Source of the DNA: Polaromonas sp.
GTDB lineage: Bacteria > Pseudomonadota > Gammaproteobacteria > Burkholderiales > Burkholderiaceae_C
Assembly (NCBI GenBank): GCA_031424795.1
Contig: JANPIC010000133.1
Span: forward strand, 12,634-76,633
DNA: 64,000 nucleotides
Direction: 5' to 3'
Below are positions 22,495 to 64,000 of this stretch, piece after piece; position 1 is the first letter of the stretch; each line of letters starts with the position of its first letter. A program made the translations under genes and the position numbers. The notes under the pieces are model-generated. The model saw only the letters and a program-made list of their open reading frames with translations, was not told the DNA's origin and searched no databases.

Positions 22495-22581
22495 TGGTGC
22501 CGGAGGCCGGAATCGAACCGGCACGGGTCTTACCCCGCGGGATTTTGAGTCCCGTGCGTCTACCAATTTCACCACTCCGGC
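22495..22581 (-). tRNA. tRNA-Leu (anticodon CAA), type II with long variable arm, CCA encoded
   Basis: The reverse complement GCCGGAG-TG-GTGAAATTGGTAGACGC-A-CGGGA-CTCAAAA-TCCCG-CGGGGTAAGACCCGT-GCCGG-TTCGATT-CCGGC-CTCCGGC-ACCA folds as a cloverleaf. Confidence 0.9.
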
Positions 22582-49470: not shown

Positions 49471-50559
49471 CTATTTTCCCATCTGCTGAGCTACTTCACG
49501 ACCTAGATCAATCACTGACATGGCATAGTAGCTGCTCCAGTTGTAGCGGGTGATGGCGTAAAAATTCTCTGTTCCAGCCACATAGCTAGGCGTATTTTCT
49601 GCAATGCTAGGGTCGCCATTTTGCAGTTCTATCAACGCTAGTGGACCGGTATGTGCAGCACCAACAGCATTCAAATTTGCGCCTTTGGCCATGAAGCTGG
49701 TGACGCTAAACGTAGGCAAAATATCAGGTGCCATCAGTGCATCCATGTCTAATTTTGCAGTATCAAAAGTAACGGGGTAATGCGTTGGCATACCTGGTTG
49801 CCACTTGAAGGCTTTGAAATAGTTGGCAACAGAGCCGATCACATCGGCAGGGCTGGTGAACAAATCGACCTTGCCATCTTCATCAAAATCAATCGCATAT
49901 TTCACCCAGCTGCTAGGCATAAACTGCGGTAAACCCATGGCACCTGCGTAGCTGCCGCGTGGCGACAGCGGGTCAACACCAGAGCGTGAGGTCAGCGATA
50001 AAAAATGTTCTAACTCGCCTTTGAAAAACGCCTGCCGTTCAGCAGCGCGAGGGTGGGATGCAGGGAAGTCAAACGTTAAAGTCGTCAGCGCATCAATCAC
50101 CCGATAGCTGCCCGTATCGCGCCCATAAATGGTTTCAACACCAATGATGCCCACGATGATCTCCGCTGGCACACCGTATTCTTTCTCCGCTTTGGTTAGT
50201 GCCGCCGCATTGTCTTGCCAAAATTTAACGCCTGCCTTGATACGGACAGGGTCAATAAACCGACTGCGATAAACGCGCCAGTTTTTGGCGACACCCCTAG
50301 GAGCTGGCTGCATCAGTCGTGAGATTTGCCCAATGTTCCTAGCTTGACCAATTGCATTCCGTACCCACTCTTTGTCCAAATCGCGCCGTTCAGCAATATC
50401 GTCAGCCATCTGCATGGCCTCTGTGCGTGTGGCGTAGAGTTCGTACTGTGTTGAAGGTTTTGCGCTAACCTGTTTTTTATTGCCAATTTGTGCTGTAGCC
50501 GGCGTATTTATTGCTTGAAATGCTATAAATAGCATAGTAAAAATTAATCTTTGTTGCAT
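49471..50559 (-). CDS. mltB: Lytic murein transglycosylase B
   Basis: GIIGVETIYG and AGAMGLPQFMPSSW motifs. The signal peptide is encoded by repeat copy I. Confidence 0.85.
   Translation of the reverse strand: MQQRLIFTMLFIAFQAINTPATAQIGNKKQVSAKPSTQYELYATRTEAMQMADDIAERRDLDKEWVRNAIGQARNIGQISRLMQPAPRGVAKNWRVYRSRFIDPVRIKAGVKFWQDNAAALTKAEKEYGVPAEIIVGIIGVETIYGRDTGSYRVIDALTTLTFDFPASHPRAAERQAFFKGELEHFLSLTSRSGVDPLSPRGSYAGAMGLPQFMPSSWVKYAIDFDEDGKVDLFTSPADVIGSVANYFKAFKWQPGMPTHYPVTFDTAKLDMDALMAPDILPTFSVTSFMAKGANLNAVGAAHTGPLALIELQNGDPSIAENTPSYVAGTENFYAITRYNWSSYYAMSVIDLGREVAQQMGK
50492..50541 (-). repeat. Dispersed repeat, copy I (reverse on +, forward relative to mltB), encodes the MltB signal peptide
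   Basis: gctgtagccggcgtatttattgcttgaaatgctataaatagcatagtaaa. Confidence 0.85.
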
Positions 50560-50620
50560 TTTAAAAAGGGTTAACTTCTGCTAAGTGTAGATATTCGCAA
50601 TTATTGACAGGTGTTTGGAT

Positions 50621-52660
50621 CTATTTTACAGGCCAAGCGATGTTTTTAAGCCCGGATTTCAAGCTTGCAATATCCGTGTTACGTATGTGTTGACGGTAGC
50701 GAAGTTCTTCAAGCTGGATCAGCCAGGCCGCAAGCGGTTTTGCTGATTCGCCAAAATGGTGGATTGCAATACCAGCAAGCTCTCGCGGGGAAATGCTTGC
50801 CGGACTTGTCAAACCTGTTTTTTCCAGTCGTGTCCGTACTGAAGAAAGCAAGCGCAACCAAGGGTCGTGCTGTCGTTTGTCCCATGTGGTCCATGCGATT
50901 CCGAATAAGCTGGCGGCCACAATGATAGTTATCAAGACATAGCTTAAATCGGTCCAACTCGGTGATGTGAAACCCAGATTTTTTAGCACATTTAATTGTG
51001 TCGCCTCTGAGTAATTCAGAATTTTTTGATTCCACGAGTTGTTCACCGCATCCCATACGGCACGAAGCTGCAGCAATGGGTTGTAGCCAGTGCCGACAGT
51101 ATTTGTCCATAAACTAGCCATCACACCACCGAAAGCACTGCTTGGCGCGCTTAATCGTTGCAGCGAATCTATACGCTGTGGTGAAACGGCCGATGTGGGG
51201 TCAACGCGAATCCAGCTTCCAACGGTGCTGCCATCTTGTTTGCCTGCCTGCCATATCTCCGCCCAAGCATGCGCATCGCTTTGGCGCACCACCCAATAGC
51301 CATCTATCGCGTTGAATTCGCCGCCTTGGTAGCCTGTGACGATGCGTGCTGGGACATTCAAAGCACGCATCAACACCACAAAGGCAGAGGCGATGTGTTC
51401 GCAAAAGCCGGTTTTACGGTCAAACCAAAATTCATCTGCCGTATTATCGCCATACACACCGGGCTCTAGGGTGTATTCGTAACCGCCAGTGCGCAACTTT
51501 TGCATGATTTCGTTAGCCAAAGTTGCCGCGTCTGCTTGGACGAAGCGCACATCACGCTTCATGTCTGCGGCCAGTTGCAGGGTACGTGGGTTGAAGCCTG
51601 CGGGTAGGTCCAGATAGTTTTTGAGACTTGGTTCTGCCTCTTGAGGGCCATAGCTAAACTGTGTGTAGCTTTGCGCTTTGTAGCGAACCAGCTCGGTGAT
51701 GGGGCGGTTGCTGAGCCACTGCAAGTCGGGTGTCATGCGCAACTCGTAGCCTGCTAAGCTGGGCGCAGTCGCCGCCGCATCAACGACAAACAGCCACGGT
51801 TTGTTGTTGGGCTCTAAGCTTACTTCGTAGTTGATCGGCCGGCCGCTTACCCGCAATTTCGCATTCGCAGGATAGTTTTTCGACGGTAACCATTCCCGTC
51901 CATCAAAGCTAGCCAGCACGGGCCCACGCAAGTAGATGTCTTTTGCAGCTGGCGGTTTGTCGTCAAACTTGATGCGCAGAGCGATACTGTCATCCAACGC
52001 CAGCTTGGCAATGGTGCCCACCCGCATGTCTGCACTCAAGCCAGATTTGCCCTGCGCCGGTCCCCCCGGCATGCCCCACAAAGGCGCAAGCCGTGGAAAC
52101 AGCATGAAAAGTACGACCATGATGGGCGCACCCAAGAGCACCATCTTCGCCGCAATCTTAGCCGCCACCATCAACTGTGGTTTGCCCACAGGCATGTGCG
52201 CGTTGACCAAGGCGGTTAACAAACCCATCAACGCTGCCAGCATGGCAAAGGCAGTGAGCAGCGATTGAGAAAACAAGAAATTGCTTAGCATGCAAAAGAA
52301 GCCGAGGAAGAACACCACAAAGGCATCTCGCTGGGCACGCAGCTCTAAAGTTTTGAGCGCCAGCAAAATCACCAGCAAGGTCACACCAGCATCACGCCCC
52401 AATATGGTTTTGTGTGTTGCCAATGTTGCGGCAACGGCTACGATCAGCAAAGTTACCAACCACCAGCGGCCAGGTAACGGCTGAGACTTCCAAGCCAGTA
52501 TGCCCCGCCACACCAATACACCTGCCACCAAGCCACTGCACCACAATGGCAAATGCGCTACCTGCGGCAGCACCACGGTGGTGATGACGAGCAGCAGAAA
52601 CAGCGTGTCGCGGCTGTCTCGCGGCAGGTGGCTCAAGGTGTTGATGAGTTTGCTAAACAT
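50621..52660 (-). CDS. Transglutaminase-domain membrane protein (TgpA-like: DUF3488 plus TGase core)
   Basis: Multi-TM N-terminus and a Cys-His-Asp core (GFCEHIASAFV...DAHAWAEIW). Confidence 0.8.
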   Translation of the reverse strand: MFSKLINTLSHLPRDSRDTLFLLLVITTVVLPQVAHLPLWCSGLVAGVLVWRGILAWKSQPLPGRWWLVTLLIVAVAATLATHKTILGRDAGVTLLVILLALKTLELRAQRDAFVVFFLGFFCMLSNFLFSQSLLTAFAMLAALMGLLTALVNAHMPVGKPQLMVAAKIAAKMVLLGAPIMVVLFMLFPRLAPLWGMPGGPAQGKSGLSADMRVGTIAKLALDDSIALRIKFDDKPPAAKDIYLRGPVLASFDGREWLPSKNYPANAKLRVSGRPINYEVSLEPNNKPWLFVVDAAATAPSLAGYELRMTPDLQWLSNRPITELVRYKAQSYTQFSYGPQEAEPSLKNYLDLPAGFNPRTLQLAADMKRDVRFVQADAATLANEIMQKLRTGGYEYTLEPGVYGDNTADEFWFDRKTGFCEHIASAFVVLMRALNVPARIVTGYQGGEFNAIDGYWVVRQSDAHAWAEIWQAGKQDGSTVGSWIRVDPTSAVSPQRIDSLQRLSAPSSAFGGVMASLWTNTVGTGYNPLLQLRAVWDAVNNSWNQKILNYSEATQLNVLKNLGFTSPSWTDLSYVLITIIVAASLFGIAWTTWDKRQHDPWLRLLSSVRTRLEKTGLTSPASISPRELAGIAIHHFGESAKPLAAWLIQLEELRYRQHIRNTDIASLKSGLKNIAWPVK

Positions 52661-52681
52661 GATTTCTGCAATGAAGTTGGC

Positions 52682-53677
52682 TCAATACAGGGCAAGTGCT
52701 TGCAAACACTGCTGTTGATGCGCTTCACCATTTGCCGGAGAAATCTCGGTTTTAGGCAATCGTAGCCCAGGCAATCGCAGCCCATACACCAAGCCAAGCG
52801 TCTCAGCCTGTACCACCCAAGCACACAGCCGCGAGAGCGAAGCTTCCGTATCTGCACAGCCCGTGCGTGCAAAATCTAGCCACAGCTCTTGCGCAGCTGC
52901 GTGTTGGGTATCGCGGCTGATCAAATCAATGGAAGGGCTGGGGTCATCCGCATCCATGCTCGCCCAGGTTTTGGCAACTTTCTTCCACACAATGTGCTTC
53001 ATGGGGTCGCCACGGCGGTAGGCACGTATGCCGTCAAATTCACCTGTCGCTTTTGTTTGCGCCTGTTTGGCGTCGCCAGACAGCGGCTCGCCAGCCGGCA
53101 AAGCTGGCGCATTGGGCTCAATAGCTGGATAAACCCACACGTGCATCGCAGGGCGTATGACAGTCCACACCCGAAACGTACCCATGGGAAAACGCGTCTC
53201 GGCAGTCAGTGTCGGCAGCCGGTGCTTGCCGCGCGGCATGCCTTGGCCAGCGATTTTTACGGTGGCGCTGCCCTGAGCCGGTACATCTGCCCATGTCCAA
53301 TGCGACAGATTCAGAACACTCATGCCAATGCCGTGTCTGAGGCGCTTTCCTGCACTGCTCAAAACAAGCTCAAAATTAACAATAGCTGGCGTAAAATATG
53401 CCTGAGGTGCTATGATGTTGATAGCTATTCCGCGTAGATTGGCATGTCCAATGTGCATCCCAACCAGCACACTACCACCTATCAAAAACGTCAACAAATA
53501 GCCTAAATTCAACTGGTAGTTGATGCTGGCGACTAACAGCACCAGCAAGGTCACCACCATCATCCAGCCGGCTTTGGTCGGCAAAATGTAGACATTGCGC
53601 TGGTTCAGCAGCATGCTGTCGGTCAACGGCAATCGGGCTTCAAACCATTGCTGAAAGCGTTTGCGAAAGAAGCCCAT
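52682..53677 (-). CDS. DUF58-domain protein
   Basis: Two N-terminal TM helices and the GEFDGIRAYRRGDPMKHIVWK motif. Positioned between the MoxR and TGase genes. Confidence 0.8.
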   Translation of the reverse strand: MGFFRKRFQQWFEARLPLTDSMLLNQRNVYILPTKAGWMMVVTLLVLLVASINYQLNLGYLLTFLIGGSVLVGMHIGHANLRGIAINIIAPQAYFTPAIVNFELVLSSAGKRLRHGIGMSVLNLSHWTWADVPAQGSATVKIAGQGMPRGKHRLPTLTAETRFPMGTFRVWTVIRPAMHVWVYPAIEPNAPALPAGEPLSGDAKQAQTKATGEFDGIRAYRRGDPMKHIVWKKVAKTWASMDADDPSPSIDLISRDTQHAAAQELWLDFARTGCADTEASLSRLCAWVVQAETLGLVYGLRLPGLRLPKTEISPANGEAHQQQCLQALALY

Positions 53678-53686
53678 ATCGAAAAT

Positions 53687-54670
53687 TCAGGACAAAGCGA
53701 CAGCGTCTAACATCGCCCGAACTTGCGCACTGGCATTGCGTCCTGCGCTGCTGACAGGGTGCAAACGGTGCGCTACGGTTTGCACCATCACGGCGCGTAT
53801 GTCATCAGGTGCGACGTAATCTCGTCCGCTCAAGAGTGCCTGCGCTTTGGTTGCACGCAGCAGCGCAATGCCGGCGCGCGGGCTTAAACCTTGCACAAAC
53901 CAATGGCCAGAGCGGGTGGCGGCAATCAGGTCTTGCAGGTAATTTAGGAGCGGTTCAGAGGCATGAATTTGCAGCACTTGCTGTTGCAACAGCGCCAACT
54001 CGGCAGCGGTTAACAGTGCAGGCAGCGCATCGACCACAGTGCGTGTATCGCCATTCGTCAGCAGACTTCGTTCCGCAATTCGGTCAGGGTAGCCTAGTGA
54101 AATGCGCATCAAAAACCGGTCCAGCTGTGATTCTGGCAGCGCATACGTACCCAGCTGATCGTGCGGGTTTTGCGTGGCGATGACGAAAAAGGGTGAGGGC
54201 AGGGCGCGGGTTTCGCCTTCAATGGTGACTTGTTTTTCTTCCATCGCTTCCAGCAGCGCACTTTGTGTTTTCGGGCTGGCGCGGTTGATTTCATCGGCCA
54301 ACAGCACTTGTGCAAACATGGGGCCGGGGTGAAAGACAAACGACTGGCTGGCACGCTCGTAGATAGAGACGCCGCTCAAATCGCTGGGCATCAGGTCGCT
54401 GGTGAACTGCACGCGAGAAAATTGCAACCCAAATGTCCGCGCTAAGGCATGCGCCAAGGTGGTTTTGCCAACGCCAGGCACGTCTTCAATCAGCAAATGC
54501 CCGCCCGCCAGCAAGCAGGCGACGCAGTCTTGCACTTGCTCAGGTTTGCCCACAATCACGCTGTTGAGCTGAGTCAGCAAGGCTTTGAGTTTGCTTTGAG
54601 TGTTATTTTGGATATTGACTTGGGTCATGGTTTTGGGATTTAACGCGTTCACAGGCTTTTCTTGAAGCAT
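53687..54670 (-). CDS. MoxR-family AAA+ ATPase
   Basis: Walker A GVPGVGKT, Walker B LLADEINRA and FFVIATQNP. The start may be the ATG at 54628. Confidence 0.9.
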   Translation of the reverse strand: MLQEKPVNALNPKTMTQVNIQNNTQSKLKALLTQLNSVIVGKPEQVQDCVACLLAGGHLLIEDVPGVGKTTLAHALARTFGLQFSRVQFTSDLMPSDLSGVSIYERASQSFVFHPGPMFAQVLLADEINRASPKTQSALLEAMEEKQVTIEGETRALPSPFFVIATQNPHDQLGTYALPESQLDRFLMRISLGYPDRIAERSLLTNGDTRTVVDALPALLTAAELALLQQQVLQIHASEPLLNYLQDLIAATRSGHWFVQGLSPRAGIALLRATKAQALLSGRDYVAPDDIRAVMVQTVAHRLHPVSSAGRNASAQVRAMLDAVALS

Positions 54671-54721
54671 ATTTTTGCACTATTATGGATACCAGTACCT
54701 TACCGTAAAAATGACAAAATC

Positions 54722-55693
54722 ATGATGACCCCAAGCCACACCATGAGAACTGGTTATTTCACCCACCCCGATTGTCGTAAACACGAAATGGGTCGCGGCC
54801 ATCCCGAGTGCCCTGAGCGCCTGGACGCGATCAACGACCATTTGCTTTACACCGGGCTGCTTGACCATTTGGCGCAACCTGACGTGCCTTTGGTGCCCAT
54901 CAGCGTCGTCGAACTCGCCCACAGCAAGCGCCACGTCGCCGCACTGCGCGGCATGAGCGACGCTTTGGTGGAGGATATCGAGGCTGGCGGCCCCAAATAC
55001 GCGCAAATTGACCCTGATACCGCCATGAACCAGTTCACCTTGTTGGCCGCCCTGCGTGCCACCGGTGCCGCCGTGGCCGCGACCGACGCTGTCATGGCCG
55101 GTGAGCTGGCCAACGCCTTTTGCGCCATCCGCCCGCCTGGCCACCACGCTGAGCATGACCGCTCCATGGGTTTTTGCCTGATCAACAGCGTCGCCACAGC
55201 CGCCAAATACGCGCTGGAGCGCCACGGGCTGGAGCGCGTCGCCATCGTCGATTTTGATGTGCACCACGGCAATGGCACAGAAGACATTGTCAGTGGTGAC
55301 AACCGTATTTTGATGGTTAGCATCTTTCAGCACCCGTTTTACCCGCATTCCGGCGCGGACAGCACGGGTAGCAACATCGTCAATCTGCCTGTACCCGCCT
55401 ACACCAAAGGTGCTGTGGTGCGCGAAATGATTGAGCACGGCTGGATACCGCGCTTGGAAGCCTTCAAGCCGCAAATGGTCTTCATCAGCGCCGGTTTTGA
55501 CGCCCACAAAGACGACGATTTGGGCCAACTCGGCTTGGTAGAGCAAGATTACGCGTGGATCACAGCCCGCATCAAAGACATCGCCAAGCGCCACGCCCAT
55601 GGCCGCATCGTCTCCTGTTTAGAAGGCGGCTACAACCTCAATGCCTTGGCGCGTAGCGTGGAAGCGCATGTGCGGGTGTTGGCGGATCTTTGA
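54722..55693 (+). CDS. Histone deacetylase-family (class II HDAC / acetylpolyamine amidohydrolase-like) protein
   Basis: RPPGHHA, DFDVHHGNGT and EGGY motifs. The ATG at 54722 avoids overlap with the MoxR gene. Confidence 0.9.
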   Translation: MMTPSHTMRTGYFTHPDCRKHEMGRGHPECPERLDAINDHLLYTGLLDHLAQPDVPLVPISVVELAHSKRHVAALRGMSDALVEDIEAGGPKYAQIDPDTAMNQFTLLAALRATGAAVAATDAVMAGELANAFCAIRPPGHHAEHDRSMGFCLINSVATAAKYALERHGLERVAIVDFDVHHGNGTEDIVSGDNRILMVSIFQHPFYPHSGADSTGSNIVNLPVPAYTKGAVVREMIEHGWIPRLEAFKPQMVFISAGFDAHKDDDLGQLGLVEQDYAWITARIKDIAKRHAHGRIVSCLEGGYNLNALARSVEAHVRVLADL

Positions 55694-55708
55694 AATTAAC
55701 AGTCACGC

Positions 55709-57025
55709 ATGACATTATTCACCGCACTCGCGCCAGCCACCTCGCTCACTGTATCTTCTGCCATGCCGACGCAGGACATAGCGCAATGGTTTGCCCAGTT
55801 AGCCACACCAAAATCGCTGCTTGAGCTGGCCGTGCTGGCGCTCTGTGCGGCCTTGGCCTGGGGCTTGCTGTGGCTGATGCGGCGCAGTTTGGCGCATGTG
55901 GACGACAAATCCATTCTGTTTGGCAAGCGCCTGGTGGATGGCGTGCTGTTCCCTTTGTTGCTGTTGTGTTTGGCCTTTGTGGCGCGCGTGGTCTTGCTGC
56001 GCACCATGGAGGTGCATGTGCTGCACATTGCGATACCTGTTTTGCTCGCCTTGGTTGTCATCCGCGTGGGTGTCAAGGTGCTGCAGGTCGCTTTTAAAAA
56101 ATCGCCACTGGTGCGGTTTTTAGAGCGCACTATTTCTTGGGTGGTCTGGCTGGCGCTGGTGTTGTGGATCAGCGGTTTGCTGCCCTTGGTGCTGCAAGAA
56201 ATGGAACAGATTACCTGGCAGGTTGGCGACAGCGCACTGTCTTTGCGCACCATGCTGGATGGCGCACTGACCGCTGGAGCGGTGCTGTTGTTGGCTTTGT
56301 GGGTCGCATCGGCGGTGGAATCCAAGCTGCTGCGCCACGCCAGCGGTGGTGAGCTGTCGCTGCGCAAAGCCGCCAGCAACGCGGTGCGGGCGGTGTTGAT
56401 TTTTGTGAGCCTGTTGTTGTCGCTCAGCATCGTTGGTATTGATTTGACCGCGCTGTCCGTTCTAGGCGGTGCTGTTGGTGTGGGTATTGGCTTGGGGCTG
56501 CAAAAACTGGCGTCCAACTACGTCAGCGGCTTCGTCATCCTGACCGAGCGCAGCATGCGCATTGGTGACTATGTGCGGGTTGACAGCTTTGAAGGCCGCA
56601 TCACCGACATCAAAACCCGCTACACCGTCATCCGCTCAGGCAGCGGGCGTGAATCCATCGTCCCTAACGAAATGCTGGTCACCAACCGCGTTGAAAATTT
56701 GACCCTCAGCGACACCCTGATAGCGCAGCAAACATTGGTGTCCGTGGGCTACGCCAGCGACGTCGCGCTGGTCCGACGCCTGCTGGTAGAAGCCGCGCTG
56801 GGACAAAGCCGCGTCATGGCTGAACCCGCGCCCATTTCAGCTTTGACGGCCTTTGGCGCAAATGGTCTGGAATTTACCTTGAATTACTGGATCACCGATC
56901 CCGAAAATGGCCAGCTCAACATCCGCTCAGACGTCAACGTCGCCATCTTGACCCACTTGCGCAGCCATAGCATCGACATCCCGTACCCGCAGCAGGTGGT
57001 GCATGACGCGAAACCACGGGTTTAG
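55709..57025 (+). CDS. MscS-family mechanosensitive ion channel protein
   Basis: Several TM helices, then the LASNYVSGFVILTERSMRIGDYV beta-domain signature. Confidence 0.85.
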   Translation: MTLFTALAPATSLTVSSAMPTQDIAQWFAQLATPKSLLELAVLALCAALAWGLLWLMRRSLAHVDDKSILFGKRLVDGVLFPLLLLCLAFVARVVLLRTMEVHVLHIAIPVLLALVVIRVGVKVLQVAFKKSPLVRFLERTISWVVWLALVLWISGLLPLVLQEMEQITWQVGDSALSLRTMLDGALTAGAVLLLALWVASAVESKLLRHASGGELSLRKAASNAVRAVLIFVSLLLSLSIVGIDLTALSVLGGAVGVGIGLGLQKLASNYVSGFVILTERSMRIGDYVRVDSFEGRITDIKTRYTVIRSGSGRESIVPNEMLVTNRVENLTLSDTLIAQQTLVSVGYASDVALVRRLLVEAALGQSRVMAEPAPISALTAFGANGLEFTLNYWITDPENGQLNIRSDVNVAILTHLRSHSIDIPYPQQVVHDAKPRV

Positions 57026-57053
57026 CTCGGGGGGCCTCGTTTTAAGCAGACGT

Positions 57054-57090
57054 AAAAAAAACCACCAAATCTTTCGATTGGTGGTTTAGT
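57054..57090 (+). terminator. Probable terminator after the MscS-family gene
   Basis: aaaaaaaaccaccaaatc-tttc-gattggtggttt (one bulge). Confidence 0.5.
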
Positions 57091-57134
57091 TGCTTAACTT
57101 TTAACAGTTTGGCTTGCTAGCTGACAGCGCACCC

Positions 57135-57166
57135 AACAAAACGGCGAACTACAAATTTGCAGTTCG
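57135..57166 (-). terminator. Possible terminator after rpsT
   Basis: CGAACT-ACAAATTTGC-AGTTCG hairpin, followed on the minus strand by a T-rich tract (GTTTTGTT). Confidence 0.35.
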
Positions 57167-57186
57167 GGCGATTTGCTTAAATTGAA

Positions 57187-57489
57187 TTAAGCAGCGGCCA
57201 AGACCAGAGTCTTGACTTTGGTAGACAAACGGCTCTTATCGCGCGCTGCCTTGTTTTTGTGGAAGATGCCTTTGTCAGCCACGGTGTCAACCACAGCTTG
57301 CATCTTCGCAAAAGCTTCAGTTGCTTTTGCTTTGTCGCCAGCGATAACGGCTTTTTCGACGTTTTTCACAGCGGTACGGTATTTAGAGCGCAAAGAAGTG
57401 TTTGCAGCATTGATTTTGACGTCTTGGCGTACGCGCTTACGGCCAGAGGCTAGACGAGGGTTTTTCTTTTTTGGTTTGGCTGATGCCAT
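57187..57489 (-). CDS. rpsT: 30S ribosomal protein S20
   Basis: [39 protein letters not shown]. Confidence 0.95.
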
Positions 57490-57526
57490 GATTTATGTTC
57501 CTTAAATGTATGTGGATGATGTCAGC

Positions 57527-57546
57527 TAAGCCTATGATTCTAGCAT
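57527..57546 (-). promoter_or_regulatory. Putative rpsT promoter
   Basis: The minus strand reads GCTAGAATCATAGGCTTAG. Confidence 0.45.
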
Positions 57547-57619
57547 TTTTGAGGACTCCAGTCCACGCATTGCTGGGCTTAGATGGCTGCGAGGCTTTTG
57601 AAATAGCGCTAAAATGGAT

Positions 57620-57635
57620 GTATTACATGTAATAC
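57620..57635 (+). promoter_or_regulatory. 16-bp perfect palindrome, candidate operator of the toxin-antitoxin operon
   Basis: GTATTACATGTAATAC lies immediately upstream of the AGGAG Shine-Dalgarno of the RHH antitoxin gene. Confidence 0.5.
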
Positions 57636-57647
57636 AGGAGTTCTGAC

Positions 57648-57884
57648 ATGTCCAGTTCCGTGATGACCATCCGCTTATCCCAAGACGATACAGTCAGATT
57701 GGCAAATTTGTCTGAAAAAACGCACCGCCCCAAATCTTTTTACATCAAAGAGGCACTTGCTCGCTATTTCGAAGATATGGAAGATCTTTATTTAGCCGAA
57801 AGCGCTATGGCTCGCATCCGCTCAGGGGAAGAGCGTACTTACACCTTAGACGAAGTAGAGGCCAAGCTTGGTTTGGCGGGTTGA
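57648..57884 (+). CDS. Type II antitoxin, ribbon-helix-helix (CopG/RelB/ParD-like)
   Basis: 78 aa. RHH N-terminus (MTIRLSQDDTVRLANLSEKTHRPKSFYIKEALARYF). Overlaps the downstream RelE/ParE gene by 17 nt. Confidence 0.8.
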   Translation: MSSSVMTIRLSQDDTVRLANLSEKTHRPKSFYIKEALARYFEDMEDLYLAESAMARIRSGEERTYTLDEVEAKLGLAG

Positions 57885-58137
57885 GCTGTCGGAGACGGCG
57901 CTTAAAAACCTCTCCAAGCTCGACAAACCAGTAGCACTACGAATTCGTAATTTTCTTCGCGACAGGCTGTCCGCATTAGACGACCCGCGCAGCATAGGCG
58001 AGGCACTTAAAGGCGCAAAGCTGGGTGATTTGTGGAAATACCGAGTCGGCGATTATCGTGCCATAGCCAGCATCGAAGACGGCAAAGTCGTCATCTTGGT
58101 TTTAGCAATTGGAAATCGTAAAGAAGTTTATCGTTGA
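57868..58137 (+). CDS. Type II toxin, RelE/ParE superfamily
   Basis: 89 aa. LKNLSKLDKPVALRI...LWKYRVGDYRAIASIEDGKVVILVLAIGNRKEVY is the canonical RelE/StbE pattern. TTG start. Confidence 0.85.
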   Translation: MVWRVELSETALKNLSKLDKPVALRIRNFLRDRLSALDDPRSIGEALKGAKLGDLWKYRVGDYRAIASIEDGKVVILVLAIGNRKEVYR

Positions 58138-58145
58138 GGCTAAGT

Positions 58146-58198
58146 TTTGCTATATTTAAAATAGCACTTTAGGCAATAAATACGCCGGCTAGAGGTGT
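58146..58198 (+). repeat. Dispersed repeat, copy J (forward), 8 nt after the relE/parE stop; left border of the low-GC cassette
   Basis: ttttgctatatttaaaatagcactttaggcaataaatacgccggctagaggtg. Shares an identical 29-nt core with copy K. Confidence 0.9.
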
Positions 58199-58243
58199 AA
58201 ATGAGGAATAAATTAGAGGTTTTATGCACTAATCTTGCATTTA

Positions 58244-58582
58244 TCAAACTTCATTTTCAAGTAACTCAGTCGCTTGAGCCAATTTTTCATTTTTGCAATA
58301 CTCGGCATAGTTTTTGCCGAATTCTTTTTTATACCAAGATCCGACAATATAGCGGCTTAAGAAATAGCTAACTCTTTGCAAAAAAATAAAGACTGGAAAG
58401 ACAATTAATATTACAAATAGCATTTCTATGCTAAGTGAATTCCATGCTATGTCACGATACCAGCGTATTGCACCCAATACAGACGTCAAAAAAAATGTAC
58501 TGTTAAGTACAATTCTCTGCATGCGTAAATTTGCATTTCGGAACTTGAAAAACTCTAATTTTTTAATTTCATCCATTTGCAC
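58244..58582 (-). CDS. Hypothetical small membrane protein (two predicted TM helices), low-GC cassette
   Basis: Hydrophobic segments IVLNSTFFLTSVLGAI and MLFVILIVFPVFIFL with a charged C-terminal tail. The likely start is ATG 58576 (AGG upstream). I recognise no family. Confidence 0.6.
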   Translation of the reverse strand: MQMDEIKKLEFFKFRNANLRMQRIVLNSTFFLTSVLGAIRWYRDIAWNSLSIEMLFVILIVFPVFIFLQRVSYFLSRYIVGSWYKKEFGKNYAEYCKNEKLAQATELLENEV

Positions 58583-58723
58583 AAACCTTATTTTTATTTA
58601 CATTTAAAACTTGAAAATATTTTTTAAACTTATGAGTGAATAATGCATTTTAGTTCTAAATAAAATAGAATTTTAGATAATAAATGCGATTGCCAAAAAC
58701 ATAAGTTATATGAAAATATGGAT

Positions 58724-59374
58724 TTAAGATTTGTCGAAACTTTGAAATTTTTCGATAAGTTCAATAATTCGTTTGGCTTGGGCTGCATACTGTTTGTAGC
58801 AGCCTTCAATATTATCAACGACCAAGCTATGGTTGCCGTTTTCTAGCTTCTGGAATGTGAGATTGTTGTAGTACTTTGCACGTTCAACAGTTTCGGCGTT
58901 GAAATCGAGGGCGCTTCGGATTTCTAGCAATGCTCTTTGAGTATCCGTGTCGAAGCTCCATATTGCGGAAACCCTAGCATCCAAAAGTGGGGTTCCGTAT
59001 TTTTGCAAAGTAAGGCTCTTTCCAGCTGGAGCTTTCTTGCTGAGGAAGAATTGATTCAATTGCTCGTCTGTAGCATGAAGGTATGGTTTAAGTACTGAGC
59101 AGATCTTCTGCGCATCAGTGTCAGCAGTTTCAGTGCTTAGGTGCTTAATAAGCCATTTGAGGCTTTGCCTAGTCATTGTGCCTTGGTGCTCTTCAATGGT
59201 ATAGCTACAAAGCGCTAATTTAATCTTTAGAGAGGAAAGTTCTGATCTAATTGCTTCTCGACCAAGCTTGTTTTCTCGGAGCCGCTTTATTTCATCTACG
59301 ACTATCGGGGCTAATAGACCTAGTAGCCATCCCAAGAGCAAAAGTGCAAGCTTCTCCATGGTTTCCTTAAGCAT
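58724..59374 (-). CDS. Hypothetical protein with one N-terminal TM helix and a ~185-aa helical domain, low-GC cassette
   Basis: LALLLLGWLLGLLAPIVV anchor. The likely start is ATG 59359, preceded by AAGGA. I recognise no catalytic or family motif. Confidence 0.65.
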   Translation of the reverse strand: MLKETMEKLALLLLGWLLGLLAPIVVDEIKRLRENKLGREAIRSELSSLKIKLALCSYTIEEHQGTMTRQSLKWLIKHLSTETADTDAQKICSVLKPYLHATDEQLNQFFLSKKAPAGKSLTLQKYGTPLLDARVSAIWSFDTDTQRALLEIRSALDFNAETVERAKYYNNLTFQKLENGNHSLVVDNIEGCYKQYAAQAKRIIELIEKFQSFDKS

Positions 59375-59508
59375 TTTGTTCGAAAAGGTCTAGAAGTAAT
59401 TAGTATTGCAAAAGTTGCAAAAATTTCTTAGAGAGTAATGCAATATAACTTAAATTTCACGAAAACAGCATCAAATTTAGTCAAATTTCACTGTTAAATT
59501 ATTTAATC

Positions 59509-59568
59509 TGCTATAAATAAAATAGCGCTTTAGGCAATAAATACGCCGGCTAGAGGCATATTTAAAGG
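59509..59568 (+). repeat. Dispersed repeat, copy K (forward), right border of the low-GC cassette, upstream of murJ
   Basis: ctgctataaataaaatagcgctttaggcaataaatacgccggctagaggcatatttaaagg. Confidence 0.9.
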
Positions 59569-59667
59569 CTAAAATGGGACAAATCAGCCATAAATCCACA
59601 AAAACAAGCCAAATCTACCTTTAAACGGCTTCCGTAGCTCCGAATTAAGCCGCTAAACTCAATCCCC

Positions 59668-61239
59668 ATGTCCCTGCTCAAATCCGCCTCCGTCATCTCG
59701 CTGCTCACGCTGGTATCCCGCATCACAGGTATGGTGCGTGACCAGTTGATGGCGGCTATGTTTGGGGCTTCGGCTATGACGGATGCGTTTAACGTGGCGT
59801 TTCGGCTGCCGAATATGTTCAGGCGGCTGTTTGCGGAAGGGGCGTTTAGCCAGGCGTTTGTGCCTGTTTTGGGGGCGAGCAAGGTTAAAAACGGGGACGA
59901 GGCGACCAAGGTGTTGGTTGATCGTGTCGCCACCGTGCTGTTTTGGGTGTTGGTGCTCACTTGCGTGATTGGCGTAGCCGCTGCGCCTGCGCTGGTGTGG
60001 GTGATGGCCAGCGGGCTGCAGCAAAACCAGCAGGGGTTTGACGCTGCGGTGTTCATGGCGCGGTGGATGTTTCCTTACATTGGGTTCATGTCGCTGGTGG
60101 CGCTGGGCGCGGGGGTGCTGAACACCTACAGACGCTTTGCCGTGCCTGCCGTGACGCCTGTTTTGCTGAATATGGCGATGATTTTGGCGGCTTGGCTGGG
60201 TGCACCGTGGTTCAAAAGCATGGGGATTCAGCCGATTTACGCGATGTCTATGGGTGTTATTGGTGGTGGCGTGTTGCAGTTGGTGATGCAGTGGCTGGCG
60301 CTGCGCAAAATTGGCATGTTGCCGAAAATTCGCGCCAATTGGGCGGAAGTGAAGGCGGCTTGGGCGGATGCGGGCGTTAAAAACGTGGCTAAATTGATGC
60401 TGCCAGCGCTTCTCGGCGTGGGGGTGGCGCATATTTCGGCGATTATCAACCTGCAGATCGCCTCGCATTTAACGCCCGGCAGTGTCAGCTGGATGAGCTA
60501 CGCCGAGCGGTTGATGGAGTTTCCCACCGCCATGCTGGGCGTTGCGCTGGGCGTGGTGCTGACGCCGCGCTTGGTGGCGGCCAAGGCCAGCGGTGACGAC
60601 GCCACCTATTCCGCCATGATTGACTGGGGGCTGCGGCTGGTGATCTTGCTGGCTGTGCCTTGTACCGTGGCGTTGCTGCTGTTTGCCAAGCCGCTGGTGG
60701 CGACTTTGTTCCATTACGGCGTGTTTTCAAGCAACGATGTGCAGCAGGTGACCACGCCTTTGATGGGCTACGGCGTCGGTTTGATTGGTTTGGTCGCTAT
60801 CAAAATATTGGCGCCCGGGTTTTACGCCAGCCAAGACATCAAAACCCCAGTCAAAATCGCCATTGCTGTGCTCATCATCACCCAGCTGCTGAATATCGCA
60901 CTGGTGCCGCTGTTTGCGCACGCGGGGCTGGCGCTGGCGATTGGCTTGGGTGCGTTGATCAACGCGCTGTGGCTGCTGATTGGTTTGATCAAGCGTGGCA
61001 GCTACCAGCCGTTGCCGGGGTGGGGTAAATTCATCGCCCAAGTCGTCATTGCCAGCGCCTTATTAGGGGTCTGGTTGTGGTGGAGCGCGGGTTATGTTGA
61101 TTGGGTTGCGCTAAAAAGTGACGTTTTTAAGAGAATAATGCTTCTAGCCGGCGCATTAATTGCCTCTGCAGCTATTTATTTTATAGCATTGATGGTTGCT
61201 GGTGTGAAAATCAAGACTTTGCTGCGGGGTCAAGGCTAG
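59668..61239 (+). CDS. murJ: Lipid II flippase MurJ (MviN)
   Basis: MSLLKSASVISLLTLVSRITGMVRDQLMAAMFGAS...FRLPNMFRRLFAEGAFSQAFVP. Confidence 0.95.
   Translation: MSLLKSASVISLLTLVSRITGMVRDQLMAAMFGASAMTDAFNVAFRLPNMFRRLFAEGAFSQAFVPVLGASKVKNGDEATKVLVDRVATVLFWVLVLTCVIGVAAAPALVWVMASGLQQNQQGFDAAVFMARWMFPYIGFMSLVALGAGVLNTYRRFAVPAVTPVLLNMAMILAAWLGAPWFKSMGIQPIYAMSMGVIGGGVLQLVMQWLALRKIGMLPKIRANWAEVKAAWADAGVKNVAKLMLPALLGVGVAHISAIINLQIASHLTPGSVSWMSYAERLMEFPTAMLGVALGVVLTPRLVAAKASGDDATYSAMIDWGLRLVILLAVPCTVALLLFAKPLVATLFHYGVFSSNDVQQVTTPLMGYGVGLIGLVAIKILAPGFYASQDIKTPVKIAIAVLIITQLLNIALVPLFAHAGLALAIGLGALINALWLLIGLIKRGSYQPLPGWGKFIAQVVIASALLGVWLWWSAGYVDWVALKSDVFKRIMLLAGALIASAAIYFIALMVAGVKIKTLLRGQG
61141..61190 (-). 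repeat. Dispersed repeat, copy L (reverse), in-frame in the last TM region of MurJ
   Basis: cttctagccggcgcattaattgcctctgcagctatttattttatagcatt. Confidence 0.75.
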
Positions 61240-61279
61240 CGTGAAGAAATAAGTCTAAAAAATAGTTCAAAATAGAGCC

Positions 61280-62143
61280 ATGCAACTCGAATTTGACGTC
61301 CCAACACCTCTGGCTTATTTCAGCCTGTTGGTGAGTAGTGACGAGCATTTTCCGCTCTTGGAAGCGGCAGTTGCCATCGCGCAAGACGAATACCCCGAAT
61401 TAGACGTCGAGCAGGTGCTGGGCGAGGTCGACCAGCTCTTGGCGCGGCTGAAGCGTCGCTTGCCCGCAGACGGCACAGCATTGGCAAGATTGCGGCTTTT
61501 GAACCAGTTTTTTTACCACGACCTCGGCTTCAGCGGCAACGTCAACAACTATTACGACCCCGACAACAGCTACCCCCACGCCGTGCTGCGCACCCGCCGG
61601 GGCATTCCCATTTCATTGGCGGTGTTGTGGCTGGAGCTGGCGCAGGGCTTGGGTTTGAACGCACGCGGCGTCGCTTTTCCCGGGCATTTCATGGTGAAGG
61701 TGAATTTGCCCAAGGGGCAGGTGGTGATTGACCCGTTTACCGGCCAATCATTGAGCCGTGAAGACCTGAGTGAGCGTTTGATGCCGTTCAAACATCTGAG
61801 CGACTTGCCTGAATCCGACAAGGAAGAGGCCGATATTCCGCTCGGTTTGTATTTGCAATCCGCCAAACCGCGCGACATCATCACCCGCATGCTGCACAAC
61901 CTCAAAGAGGTGCACAAAACGGCGGAAGACTGGCAGCGCATGATTCCGGTGCAAGACCGCCAAATCGCGCTGAACCCTGATGCGTGGAGCGAATACCGCG
62001 ACCGCGGTTTGGCTTTTGCCGAGCTGGGCAAGGCAACAGCGGCAGTACGTGATTTTGATGTTTACCTGCTCAATGTCACCGAGGCCCCCGATGTCAAAGC
62101 CATCGCACTGCGGGCGCAAGAGCTGCGCCGGGCGGTGATTTAA
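61280..62143 (+). CDS. SirB1/YchA-family protein (transglutaminase-like N-domain plus TPR)
   Basis: 287 aa. RRGIPISLAVLWLELAQGLGL..GVAFPGHFMVKV motif and a TPR-like C-terminus. Confidence 0.75.
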   Translation: MQLEFDVPTPLAYFSLLVSSDEHFPLLEAAVAIAQDEYPELDVEQVLGEVDQLLARLKRRLPADGTALARLRLLNQFFYHDLGFSGNVNNYYDPDNSYPHAVLRTRRGIPISLAVLWLELAQGLGLNARGVAFPGHFMVKVNLPKGQVVIDPFTGQSLSREDLSERLMPFKHLSDLPESDKEEADIPLGLYLQSAKPRDIITRMLHNLKEVHKTAEDWQRMIPVQDRQIALNPDAWSEYRDRGLAFAELGKATAAVRDFDVYLLNVTEAPDVKAIALRAQELRRAVI

Positions 62144-62174
62144 CGAAATAAGTTCGCTGGGTTAATTGAGGTTT

Positions 62175-62942
62175 TTAAGAACCTTGCGAACCCCGATGCG
62201 CCCATGCTGTGGTGTGGCGCTCGATGTAGCTGAAAAATTCGTACATGGCCATGGCCATCGCACCAATCACCACCAAGCCTGCAAAAGCCAAAGCCAAGCG
62301 CTGTTGCGAACTAGCCGTTTGCATGAGGTAGCCAATGCCTGAATCCCCTGCGGTCATCTCGGCCAGTACCGTTCCCACAAACGCCAAGGTGATGGCGATT
62401 TTGAGCGATGCATAAAAGTAAGGCAAGGAACGTGGCAAGCCGACTTTGACCAGCACATCCCAACGCTTCGCACCCAGCACTCGCAACACGTCTTCGAGTT
62501 CAGGCTCCAGCGTTGCCAAACCTGTGGCGATGTTGACGGTGATGGGGAAGAAAGAGATTAAAAAAGCAGTCAAGATGCCTGGACCAATGCCAATGCCAAA
62601 CCACACCACCAAGATTGGCACGATAGCGGCTTTGGGGACGGCGTTGAAGGCGACCAAGAGCGGAAACACGGCGGCGTAAACCAAACGGGCTGATCCGACC
62701 AAAAAGCCCAAGAGCACACCGACCACAATCGACAGACCAAAACCCACCATGGTCACCCAAAAGGTTTGCCAAGCAGCGCCAGCAATAGGGCCCGCAAACT
62801 CAAACATGGCTTGACCGATTAGTAAGGGGCTAGGAAAGATGAATTCTGGGATGTTGAACAGACTGCAAATGCCCTGCCACAGTGCCAGCAAGACCACAAA
62901 TAATATTAAAGGCGAATAGGCTTCTAGTTTTTTGGAGTTCAT
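62175..62942 (-). CDS. ABC transporter permease (NitT/TauT, SsuC/TauC-like)
   Basis: Six TM helices and a binding-protein-dependent transport EAA-like loop (LEDVLRVLGAKRWDVL). Confidence 0.8.
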   Translation of the reverse strand: MNSKKLEAYSPLILFVVLLALWQGICSLFNIPEFIFPSPLLIGQAMFEFAGPIAGAAWQTFWVTMVGFGLSIVVGVLLGFLVGSARLVYAAVFPLLVAFNAVPKAAIVPILVVWFGIGIGPGILTAFLISFFPITVNIATGLATLEPELEDVLRVLGAKRWDVLVKVGLPRSLPYFYASLKIAITLAFVGTVLAEMTAGDSGIGYLMQTASSQQRLALAFAGLVVIGAMAMAMYEFFSYIERHTTAWAHRGSQGS

Positions 62943-63760
62943 GCTGCCTTTCCCGCCAAACTAGCGCCAGCGCCACCTCGGATGGCACCAATATGACCAC
63001 GCAGCTCGTGCACGATCTCACTAAACTCAGACGTGTAGGTGATTTCTAAATCTCGCGGCCTAGGCAAATCAATCTTACGCTCCACGACAAAACGACCTGG
63101 ATTTTTGGACATCACAAACACCTTGTCGGCCAGAAAAACAGATTCGCGCAAATCATGCGTGACCAAAATGACGTTGAATTTTTGCAATTGATGCAAATCG
63201 CGCAGCACGCACCATAGCTCCTCTTTGGTGAAGGCGTCAAGAGCACCAAACGGCTCGTCTAGCAGCAGCATTTTGGGTTCGTGAATCAATGCGCGGCAAA
63301 TGCTGGCACGCTGTTGCATGCCGCCCGACAACTGCCACGGAAACTTGTCCGCATAGCCGTCTAATCCTACAGTTTTGAGCAATTGCCGCGCACGTGCTTC
63401 GTACTCTGCGCGTTTGGCTTTGAGGCTGCTGCGGTAGGGTTCTACGATTTCTAGCGGTAACATGACATTGTCCAGCGTGGTGCGCCAAGGCAACAATGAG
63501 GGCGCTTGAAACGCCATGCCCGATATTTTGAGTGGCCCCGTCACAGGCGCACCATCCACATGAATGCTGCCGCGCGTGGGCATTTTCAAGCCCGTCGTCA
63601 ACTTCATGAAGGTGGATTTACCGCAACCCGATGGTCCTACGATGGCGATAAATTCGCCCTCAGTGACCGACAGGTTAATGTCCTCAACCGCAAACTGGTT
63701 TTGCGCCAACAGCTCGTCGTTGTAGGCCAGCCAGACATTTTTAAAATCAACAAACGCCAT
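62939..63760 (-). CDS. ABC transporter ATP-binding protein (SsuB/TauB-like)
   Basis: GPSGCGKST, LSGGMQQRASICRAL and LLLDEPFGALD. 4-nt overlap with the permease gene. Confidence 0.85.
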   Translation of the reverse strand: MAFVDFKNVWLAYNDELLAQNQFAVEDINLSVTEGEFIAIVGPSGCGKSTFMKLTTGLKMPTRGSIHVDGAPVTGPLKISGMAFQAPSLLPWRTTLDNVMLPLEIVEPYRSSLKAKRAEYEARARQLLKTVGLDGYADKFPWQLSGGMQQRASICRALIHEPKMLLLDEPFGALDAFTKEELWCVLRDLHQLQKFNVILVTHDLRESVFLADKVFVMSKNPGRFVVERKIDLPRPRDLEITYTSEFSEIVHELRGHIGAIRGGAGASLAGKAA

Positions 63761-63786
63761 GAGGCTGTCCTAACGAGTTTTGTCTA

Positions 63787-64000
63787 TTACTTTTTAGCGG
63801 GTGCAGCTTTTGCAGCTGGCAGCACAGCATTCAAAGCAGCATCGCTAGGCAAGAAGCTGCCATTCCAAATTGCATTACGATCAACGCGGGTTTTTGTGCC
63901 GAAGGCATCAGACACTTGGCTCGCCATCAGCGACAAACGGCCATCGCTGACCTTGCCGAAGCCCTCAGTACGTGCGTCCGGGCTGTTGATGACCGTGTCA
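63787..64000 (-). CDS. Probable ABC substrate-binding protein, C-terminal end (5' part outside the window)
   Basis: The minus-strand frame is open to the window edge (...DTVINSPDARTEGFGKVSDGRLSLMASQVSDAFGTKTRVDRNAIWNGSFLPSDAALNAVLPAAKAAPAKK*). It lies just upstream of the ATPase and permease genes. The call rests on context only. Confidence 0.5.
   Translation of the reverse strand, partial: DTVINSPDARTEGFGKVSDGRLSLMASQVSDAFGTKTRVDRNAIWNGSFLPSDAALNAVLPAAKAAPAKK

Follow-up and report, generated by a model that had tools for sequence, protein, structure and literature searches.

The spacer between the divergent rpsT and murJ genes of Polaromonas is an integrase-less hotspot for accessory DNA and, in one clade, carries a repeat-delimited cassette array

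We analysed a window of 64,000 nucleotides of Polaromonas sp. (contig JANPIC010000133.1) for the interval between two divergent core genes, rpsT, which encodes ribosomal protein S20 (57187-57489, minus strand; PF01649, 88.6 bits), and murJ, which encodes the lipid II flippase (59668-61239, plus strand; PF03023, 404.8 bits). The two genes, of which the first shares 83-100% protein identity with its relatives, form the left and right core flanks of a 2178-bp gap that holds a toxin-antitoxin (TA) pair of the RelB/RelE-ParE type and two open reading frames (ORFs), orf112 and orf216. Domain matches and ORFs agree with the genes that the initial annotation, made from the sequence alone, had placed here: rpsT, murJ, the TA pair and the two low-GC ORFs. 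Its description of two units of different composition is equally accurate, since the G+C content of the TA pair is 0.47-0.50, against 0.43 for orf216 and 0.33 for orf112; the spacers reach values down to 0.24, and the flanking genes mostly lie at 0.49-0.58. It had also reported that the gap lacks an integrase, a transposase and a tRNA, and tRNA, Pfam and phmmer scans were likewise negative: the sole tRNA of the window lies at 22495, and no mobility domain was found among the Pfam-scanned ORFs, which comprised the gap of the window and part of the relatives' cargo. An Rfam scan of the gap returned no family, only a sub-threshold chance match at 57038-57092.

The TA pair consists of a 78-aa RelB-like ribbon-helix-helix (RHH) antitoxin (57648-57884, plus strand; NF048017, 90.1 bits for a cut-off of 50; PF19807, DUF6290/RHH, 38.4 bits) and an 89-aa toxin of the RelE/ParE superfamily (57868-58137, plus strand; PF05016, 56.8 bits for a cut-off of 23; TIGR02385, 28.9 bits for a cut-off of 27.9). 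The antitoxin lies upstream, the toxin start overlaps it by 17 nt and both genes score above family cut-offs, which is the layout of a type II TA system. The region upstream of the pair (57551-57647, plus strand) is 91% identical in the related locus L080 and contains an 18-nt perfect palindrome, TGTATTACATGTAATACA, at 57619-57636, a candidate RelB operator. Beyond the toxin, orf112 (58244-58582, minus strand; 110-112 aa) shows two hydrophobic segments by inspection, and orf216 (58724-59374, minus strand; 216 aa) is predicted by AlphaFold to form an N-terminal membrane helix and an all-helical bundle (pLDDT 88.7, pTM 0.79). Neither ORF has a match in Pfam, NCBIfam or PADLOC, and a Foldseek comparison of the orf216 model with the PDB gave no significant match, only generic helical bundles (best E = 0.039).

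The rpsT-murJ interval varies throughout the genus. A murJ search yielded 80 loci, nearly all from Polaromonas or other Comamonadaceae; murJ identity is 82-96% within a close low-GC clade and about 70% for the remaining genus. Both genes, rpsT on the minus and murJ on the plus strand, bound the interval in 68 loci, the window included, over which gap sizes were counted. The gap measures 71-348 bp in 49 of the 68, so that the two genes are immediate divergent neighbours in most relatives, in agreement with the initial annotation, which has them adjacent in many Burkholderiales genomes; in the other 19 it measures 518-6733 bp and holds unrelated cargo. In five more loci, the 1.4-8 kb upstream of murJ contain no rpsT. 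Within the close clade, nine out of ten informative loci are occupied. On a murJ tree of 70 tips, 16 changes between the occupied and the empty state are needed, 12 of them forced by well-supported branches; since this is near the mean of 19.1 changes obtained with shuffled labels, turnover is very fast. The neighbouring murJ-tgl junction, taken as a control, exceeds 288 bp in none of 73 gaps, and one small clade has a different gene downstream. More than ten cargo types, unrelated between genomes, occupy the gap: an SDR and a DsbA-like protein (L009, L013, L021), AraC and an alpha/beta hydrolase (L033, L040), TonB-dependent receptors (L047, L059), an Mla/MCE ABC operon (L003, L005, L006 and L052, four of the ten close relatives), HigBA, HicB with a truncated PIN, two RelB/ParE types, and several ORFs without a family. 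A metagenome scan for the left junction added two loci, a second L080-type allele (L105) and a short contig with other cargo (L104). This tabulation across relatives, which the initial annotation had called for, confirms that contents differ between genomes and that the site is a genus-wide, fast-changing landing site for foreign genes. All four genes of the window occur together in none of the 79 relatives' loci, a result that its reading of the region as an insertion survives.

The edges of the variable DNA lie in the promoters of the two core genes. On the rpsT side, homology within the close clade stops at 57550-57552 for six different cargos (loci compared: L002, L007, L008, L052, L006 and L080), and 57550|57551 is the left junction for all cargos. 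The conserved block that ends there is the rpsT leader (57490-57550, minus strand), identified by homology, in which a promoter scan places a TG-extended -10 box (TAGAAT, 57537-57542); the corresponding -35 box (TGGACT, 57560-57565) falls within the variable DNA. On this prediction, the -35 region of an essential ribosomal-protein promoter is freely exchangeable at the site. On the other side, a murJ leader (59584-59667, plus strand) is conserved in seven of the ten close relatives according to right-junction alignments and has TAAACT (59654-59659) at its end. This hexamer or its variant TACACT stands 8 nt before the murJ ATG, at the equivalent position in all 68 loci, and leaves no space for a Shine-Dalgarno leader; it would be the -10 box of a leaderless-type murJ transcript. 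For 13 pairs of occupied and empty loci in the distant clade, homology breaks off on the left at a distance of 51-90 nt (mostly 57-64) from the start of rpsT, and on the right 0-38 nt before that of murJ. Conservation is limited to the 61-nt leader of rpsT, which includes the -10 box, and to some 15 nt preceding the murJ start codon, everything between them being replaceable. The hotspot is the spacer between two divergent core promoters, which is probably permissive because insertions there disrupt no operon. Even the gaps scored as empty vary in their middle. Those of high-GC Polaromonas (L027, L028, L042, L060, L016, L017) hold zero to three GC-rich palindromes resembling repetitive extragenic palindromes (REPs), for example CCCCCACGGTCG...GTGTAGC...CCCCCCGAGGGGG, whose copy number differs between near-identical sisters (gap of 125 bp in L041, of 197 bp in L042). 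On the far side of rpsT, the downstream spacer at 57055-57186 is 99.2% identical to L007 over 132 nt in surroundings of about 80-88% identity, and looks like a recent recombination tract adjoining the hotspot.

Within the gap, the low-GC block is delimited by two direct repeats, J (58145-58203) and K (59507-59564), which share an identical 29-nt core (58167-58195 = 59528-59556) where the chance expectation is no match. Two relatives, L080 and L105, correspond to the window minus 58196-59508: they carry the TA pair and a single repeat copy, followed by the leader and murJ, and have no low-GC block. The alignment of the window with L080 covers 50300-58195 and then 59509-64000, and 48 nt of L080, corresponding to the repeat, fall in both of its aligned ranges. 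The low-GC block therefore coincides exactly with the segment from J to K; the initial annotation, which had offered these two copies as the only candidate junctions, was right on this point. Right-side homology with L080, L007, L001, L003, L008 and L052 restarts at 59505-59509. It had further suggested looking for an empty site and for the repeat at that site; the first exists in the close relative L002, with a gap of 96 bp, but this allele is without a repeat copy. The TA orthologues of L080 and L105 show 92% and 90% protein identity (92% for the antitoxin), and the nucleotide identity between the window and L080 is 83-89% for the TA genes and likewise for mscS, murJ and tgl. Because the divergence of the TA pair matches that of the flanking core genes, the pair is old at the site and the low-GC block alone forms an extra layer. 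The initial annotation was correct in calling the rpsT-murJ junction an insertion hotspot, with the refinement that the TA pair did not arrive recently. TA decay is also seen at the site: in L007 (7483-8000), a RelB' N-terminus is deletion-fused to a ParE' C-terminal stub, and in L100 (2534-3012), an orphan HicB is joined straight to orf112.

The repeat is a clade-specific 58-nt element with two hairpins and a 21-nt conserved core. Fourteen copies occur in the window, about one per 4.6 kb, in both orientations and mostly extragenic, and they are predicted to fold only weakly, with energies of -4 to -12 kcal/mol and z-scores between -2.2 and +0.2. The element is a dispersed host family with members also inside genes, murJ included. 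It is limited to the close clade except for an in-gene copy at the murJ 3' end (61133-61188, minus strand; E = 9e-14), where the family member codes for the last hydrophobic helix, LLAGALIASAAIYFIAL; the likeness is kept there in distant high-GC Polaromonas that otherwise have no repeat (L029:6672-6724; L034:9471-9520). About 150 nt from another copy (50484-50542) starts a segment of some 3.7 kb, or two and a half genes (50690-54446), that is absent from L007.

The copies at the gap differ from the dispersed ones in several respects. In the close clade they all have one orientation, and their mutual similarity is 0.75-0.82, against 0.65-0.68 to dispersed copies. With its extension, J spans 58145-58218 (plus strand; nhmmer E = 2e-16); its left half is of a type, here called a, also found after ParE in L080, and its extension GTGTAAATGAGGAATAAATTAGAG (58195-58218, plus strand) has a single occurrence in the window and is elsewhere confined to junctions inside the arrays of L001, L052 and L086. 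K, the murJ-proximal copy, has a left half of another type, b, and spans 59507-59583 (plus strand; nhmmer E = 5e-17) with its own extension, GCATATTTAAAGGCTAAAATGG. Writing R for an internal copy and K for the murJ-proximal one, the array of L001 reads RelB'/ParE' - R - orf147 - K - murJ, that of L052 reads MCE operon - R - orf104 and HigBA - R - orf89 and orf161 - K - murJ, that of L003 ends in MCE operon - R - short cassette - K - murJ, and L008 carries HicB/PIN and three ORFs - K - murJ. Array-internal copies have in common a right extension of 25-30 nt, GTGTAAATGAGGGGTAATTTCGAGG, found nowhere else in about 1 Mb of sequence (the window and the other loci), while murJ-proximal copies have a different common extension that runs on into the leader. 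Left-half types go with the upstream segment, and right extensions with the downstream segment. Recombination within the conserved core predicts such a pattern, and all four combinations are seen: a with the K extension (L080), a with the J extension (J of the window), b with the K extension (K of the window), and b with the J extension (the second R of L052, and L092). The breakpoints lie inside the repeat in four classes of junction: after ParE (the window compared with L080), after the MCE operon (L052 with L003), after HigA (L052 with L092), and before the murJ leader, which has six different left neighbours. Cassettes are reshuffled as modules. The cassettes L001:556-1232 and L052:5349-6698 share their first ~130 nt and a block of ~113 nt near the right end (86% identity), and the ORFs in between differ, orf147 in one and orf89 with orf161 in the other; it looks as if a conserved scaffold had had its cargo exchanged.

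The low-GC block, described in the initial annotation as one low-GC two-gene cassette, does have a low G+C content; it reads, however, as two cassettes, since a degenerate repeat copy (58652-58716, plus strand; 60% identity to J) stands between orf112 and orf216. In L092-L096, an 80% homologue of orf216 lies alone between two well-preserved repeat copies beside HigBA, with no orf112, and the L092 copy that corresponds to the degenerate one is well preserved (E = 3.5e-7). In L100-L103, the pair of orf112 and orf216 (88-92% nucleotide identity) stands beside an orphan HicB, not RelBE. At 90% identity, the orf216 family falls into 57 clusters of hypothetical proteins, most of them from Burkholderiales; a viral-contig scan found no relative, and homologues form single-gene islets in four other, unrelated contexts. 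L087-L090 hold a true integron that has the homologue among its cassettes; its IntI scores 465.9 bits on TIGR02249, and its attC sites read GCCTAAC...GTTAGGC. These attC sites are ~120 nt long and ~90% alike; L088:1691-6133 is an example, a complete metagenomic integron with IntI, BrnT/BrnA, YoeB/Phd, the orf216 homologue and further cassettes. The orf112 family is rare, with five homologue clusters. In L097 (4356-7333), a 60% homologue comes last in a cluster, after a 101-aa ORF, a 345-aa ORF and a 274-aa protein with a TIR_2 domain; these genes may form a TIR-based defence cluster without a name so far, in which a small membrane protein takes part, and the position of the homologue after a TIR-domain protein hints at a defence context without proving it. 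Kinship of orf112 with the 126-aa neighbour of an orf216 homologue in L081 was considered and rejected, the two being unrelated.

We assessed the state of the site in populations from Logan contigs of eight metagenome runs, counting contigs at least 97-98% identical to the window. The low-GC cassette block is shallower than its flanks, or absent, in four runs. In run X2, the depth is 57-69 for the TA pair, 38-127 for murJ and 0 for the cassette, and an L008-type allele extends from the same left junction. The cassette reaches a depth of 20.6 in run X1 (TA 84), 25 in run X7 (murJ more than 600) and 5.9 in run X8 (TA 21-36). Run X3 contains the cassette without this TA pair. Joints that appeared at 90% likeness were gone at 97-98%; in our reading, they come from another species or another copy of the repeat and not from excision.

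The best explanation, which we hold to be probable, is an integrase-less hotspot in which cassettes are joined by repeats and alleles spread via the flanks. The rpsT-murJ divergent-promoter spacer serves across Polaromonas as a place of gain and loss of accessory DNA. In the window, an older RelB/RelE module and one repeat copy would have been in place before the split from the L080 lineage, and the block of orf112 and orf216 would have joined the site through recombination inside the repeat core. This would leave J as the upstream hybrid, made of the resident left half and a cassette-type extension, and K as the regenerated murJ-proximal copy. Either DNA bearing the repeat integrated into the resident copy in Campbell fashion, or a deletion ran the opposite way, and this choice bears on the direction of each event; integration would presumably pass through a circular intermediate, and the acting enzyme may be RecA, working on the ~30-nt identical core, or a site-specific recombinase. 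The most likely route of alleles from strain to strain is double homologous recombination in the core genes on the two flanks.

Several observations weigh against this explanation. Firstly, no tyrosine recombinase was found in the window or in the ten close-relative loci when phmmer compared an integron integrase with six-frame ORFs. Secondly, no excision or circle junction was found at 97% identity or more in the eight metagenome runs; this is weak evidence, because the repeat is where contigs invariably break (58170/58177 to 59550). Thirdly, at least one junction, that between HicB and orf112 in L100, has no repeat. Fourthly, the repeat is dispersed, at about one copy per 4.6 kb, so that its presence beside any gene is not special. 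Fifthly, the distant high-GC clade has the hotspot without the J/K repeat family; the repeat thus explains how cassettes are stacked, and not why the site is hot. Finally, the empty L002 lacks the repeat, which leaves the first arrival of repeat and leader unexplained, and the order of events is deduced, not observed, because the relatives are different species or metagenome-assembled genomes at about 80-88% nucleotide identity.

The alternative that survives best relies on flanking homology only: all variation would arise elsewhere, transformation or transduction would bring it in as whole alleles, double homologous recombination in rpsT/mscS and murJ would install these, and the repeats would be incidental punctuation that spread into the array independently. 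Hotspots without mobile-element genes and with recombination at the core genes that flank them are well documented (PMC5635113), and at this locus the repeat-less hotspot of the distant clade, the 132-nt tract at 57055-57186 (99% identical to L007 amid ~80-88%), the coexistence of several alleles in single samples and the frequent position of the repeat directly past stop codons elsewhere in the window all fit such entry. It leaves unexplained, however, that the outer flanks of J and K match the single-copy state of L080 and L105 in exact register, that the array-internal copies carry a 25-30-nt extension absent from all other copies in about 1 Mb, and that orthologous left halves are followed by different right extensions from genome to genome. 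We consider it unlikely as the whole explanation.

Much less probable still is vertical inheritance with differential loss, under which a large composite region would be ancestral and the present differences deletions only. Deletion remnants do exist (the TA remnant of L007, the orphan HicB of L100), the MCE operon is common to four of the ten close relatives, and the TA pair has diverged as much as its flanks; but more than ten unrelated cargo types would all need to be ancestral, the G+C content of both cassettes (0.30-0.39) is low for a genome at about 0.52, in other taxa, members of the orf216 family are found at unrelated sites and within an integron, and sister taxa differ. A decayed integron, with the repeats as lineage-specific attC sites and an IntI that is lost or encoded elsewhere, can hardly be upheld: small cassettes of unknown function including TA modules are a mark of sedentary chromosomal integrons (10.1101/2022.08.03.502626; PMC4889954), a true integron has a member of the orf216 family as a cassette and the pattern of chimeric sites fits integron logic, yet the repeats form two short hairpins instead of one long imperfect R''/L''-L'/R' palindrome, fold weakly, do not conserve the GTT of the R' box and have no inverse core, on which grounds of structure and sequence we rejected an attC reading of them, their copies are scattered singly through housekeeping regions and inside genes, an L088 IntI query found no match in the window or the close-relative loci, and the cassette genes are mostly directed away from murJ, a 130-nt AT-rich spacer upstream of orf216 being able to hold a promoter of its own.

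A bolder form of the explanation by repeat-joined cassettes is that this Polaromonas clade maintains a platform for cassettes that works like an integron but has none. Recombination would take place at a dispersed host repeat, the murJ-proximal copy would be attI-like, cassettes would bear the J extension and be moved by a recombinase encoded elsewhere or by host machinery acting on the repeat hairpins, and genes would be exchanged with the attC integron pool, as orf216 suggests. We regard this as conceivable but doubtful.

Hotspots without mobile-element genes are common and mechanistically vague. The locus offers, in a single clade, a clean series of states: empty, TA pair with one repeat, and one to three repeat-bounded cassettes. 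Since the breakpoints map to a 30-nt core, the entry of DNA into integrase-less hotspots becomes open to direct tests. Should the repeat prove to be an active site of recombination, it would represent a new route of cassette capture parallel to integrons, and a function for a puzzling repeat family of which some copies are conserved inside genes. If only homologous recombination acts on the 30-nt patch, dispersed repeats would be able to arrange accessory genes in integron-like arrays.

The locus resembles the integrase-less chromosomal hotspots of horizontal gene transfer between conserved core genes described by Oliveira, Touchon, Cury & Rocha 2017 (PMC5635113): syntenic core genes enclose a fixed interval that receives many unrelated accessory sets with rapid turnover and without recognisable mobile-element genes. 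Elevated homologous recombination in the flanking core genes is a further trait of such hotspots, of which the 132-nt tract beside rpsT may be a sign here. The locus differs from them in that the interval is a divergent-promoter spacer, with breakpoints between the rpsT -35 and -10 boxes and ~15 nt before murJ, and in that one clade has a repeat-delimited cassette array. The pdif modules of Acinetobacter plasmids, small modules including TA pairs that are bounded by short XerC/XerD sites and reshuffled without a recombinase gene of their own, are similar in organization; here the repeats are direct, not alternating, and the array is chromosomal. A pdif/Xer reading was rejected, no dif-like 28-mer (CATAA-N6-TTATGTTAA with at most two mismatches) being present in the window. 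Like REPs, REPINs and bacterial interspersed mosaic elements (BIMEs), the repeat is short, hairpin-forming, abundant, lineage-specific, mostly extragenic and found in both orientations, and direct copies bracket acquired DNA. Unlike these families, it has two different hairpins and a 21-nt core, some copies are translated within genes and the GTAG motif of REPs and REPINs is not conserved; and unlike in islands of these families, the empty and the single-copy states are both seen here, so that breakpoints can be mapped to the repeat. With sedentary integrons and with CALINs, which are clusters of attC sites without an integrase (Cury et al. 2016, PMC4889954), the locus shares stacked cassettes of 0.5-1.3 kb, most without a known function and some with TA pairs, and a conserved repeat at each junction. 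As in integron arrays, the junction sites are hybrids such as site-by-site insertion predicts, a functional analogy only (chimeric attC, PMC4889954), and the orf216 cassette gene family is common to a true integron. Unlike in integrons, no IntI was found in the window or the close-relative loci, the attC architecture is missing by sequence comparison with the L088 attC (no R''(RYYYAAC)...R'(GTTRRRY) palindrome), the repeat at the junctions belongs to the dispersed host family, of which single copies lie chromosome-wide and inside genes, and the cassette ORFs lie on the strand opposite to murJ. The hotspot is therefore of a known kind; what is new is its repeat-delimited, integrase-less cassette array, the exchange of half-sites within it, and a cassette gene shared with true integrons.

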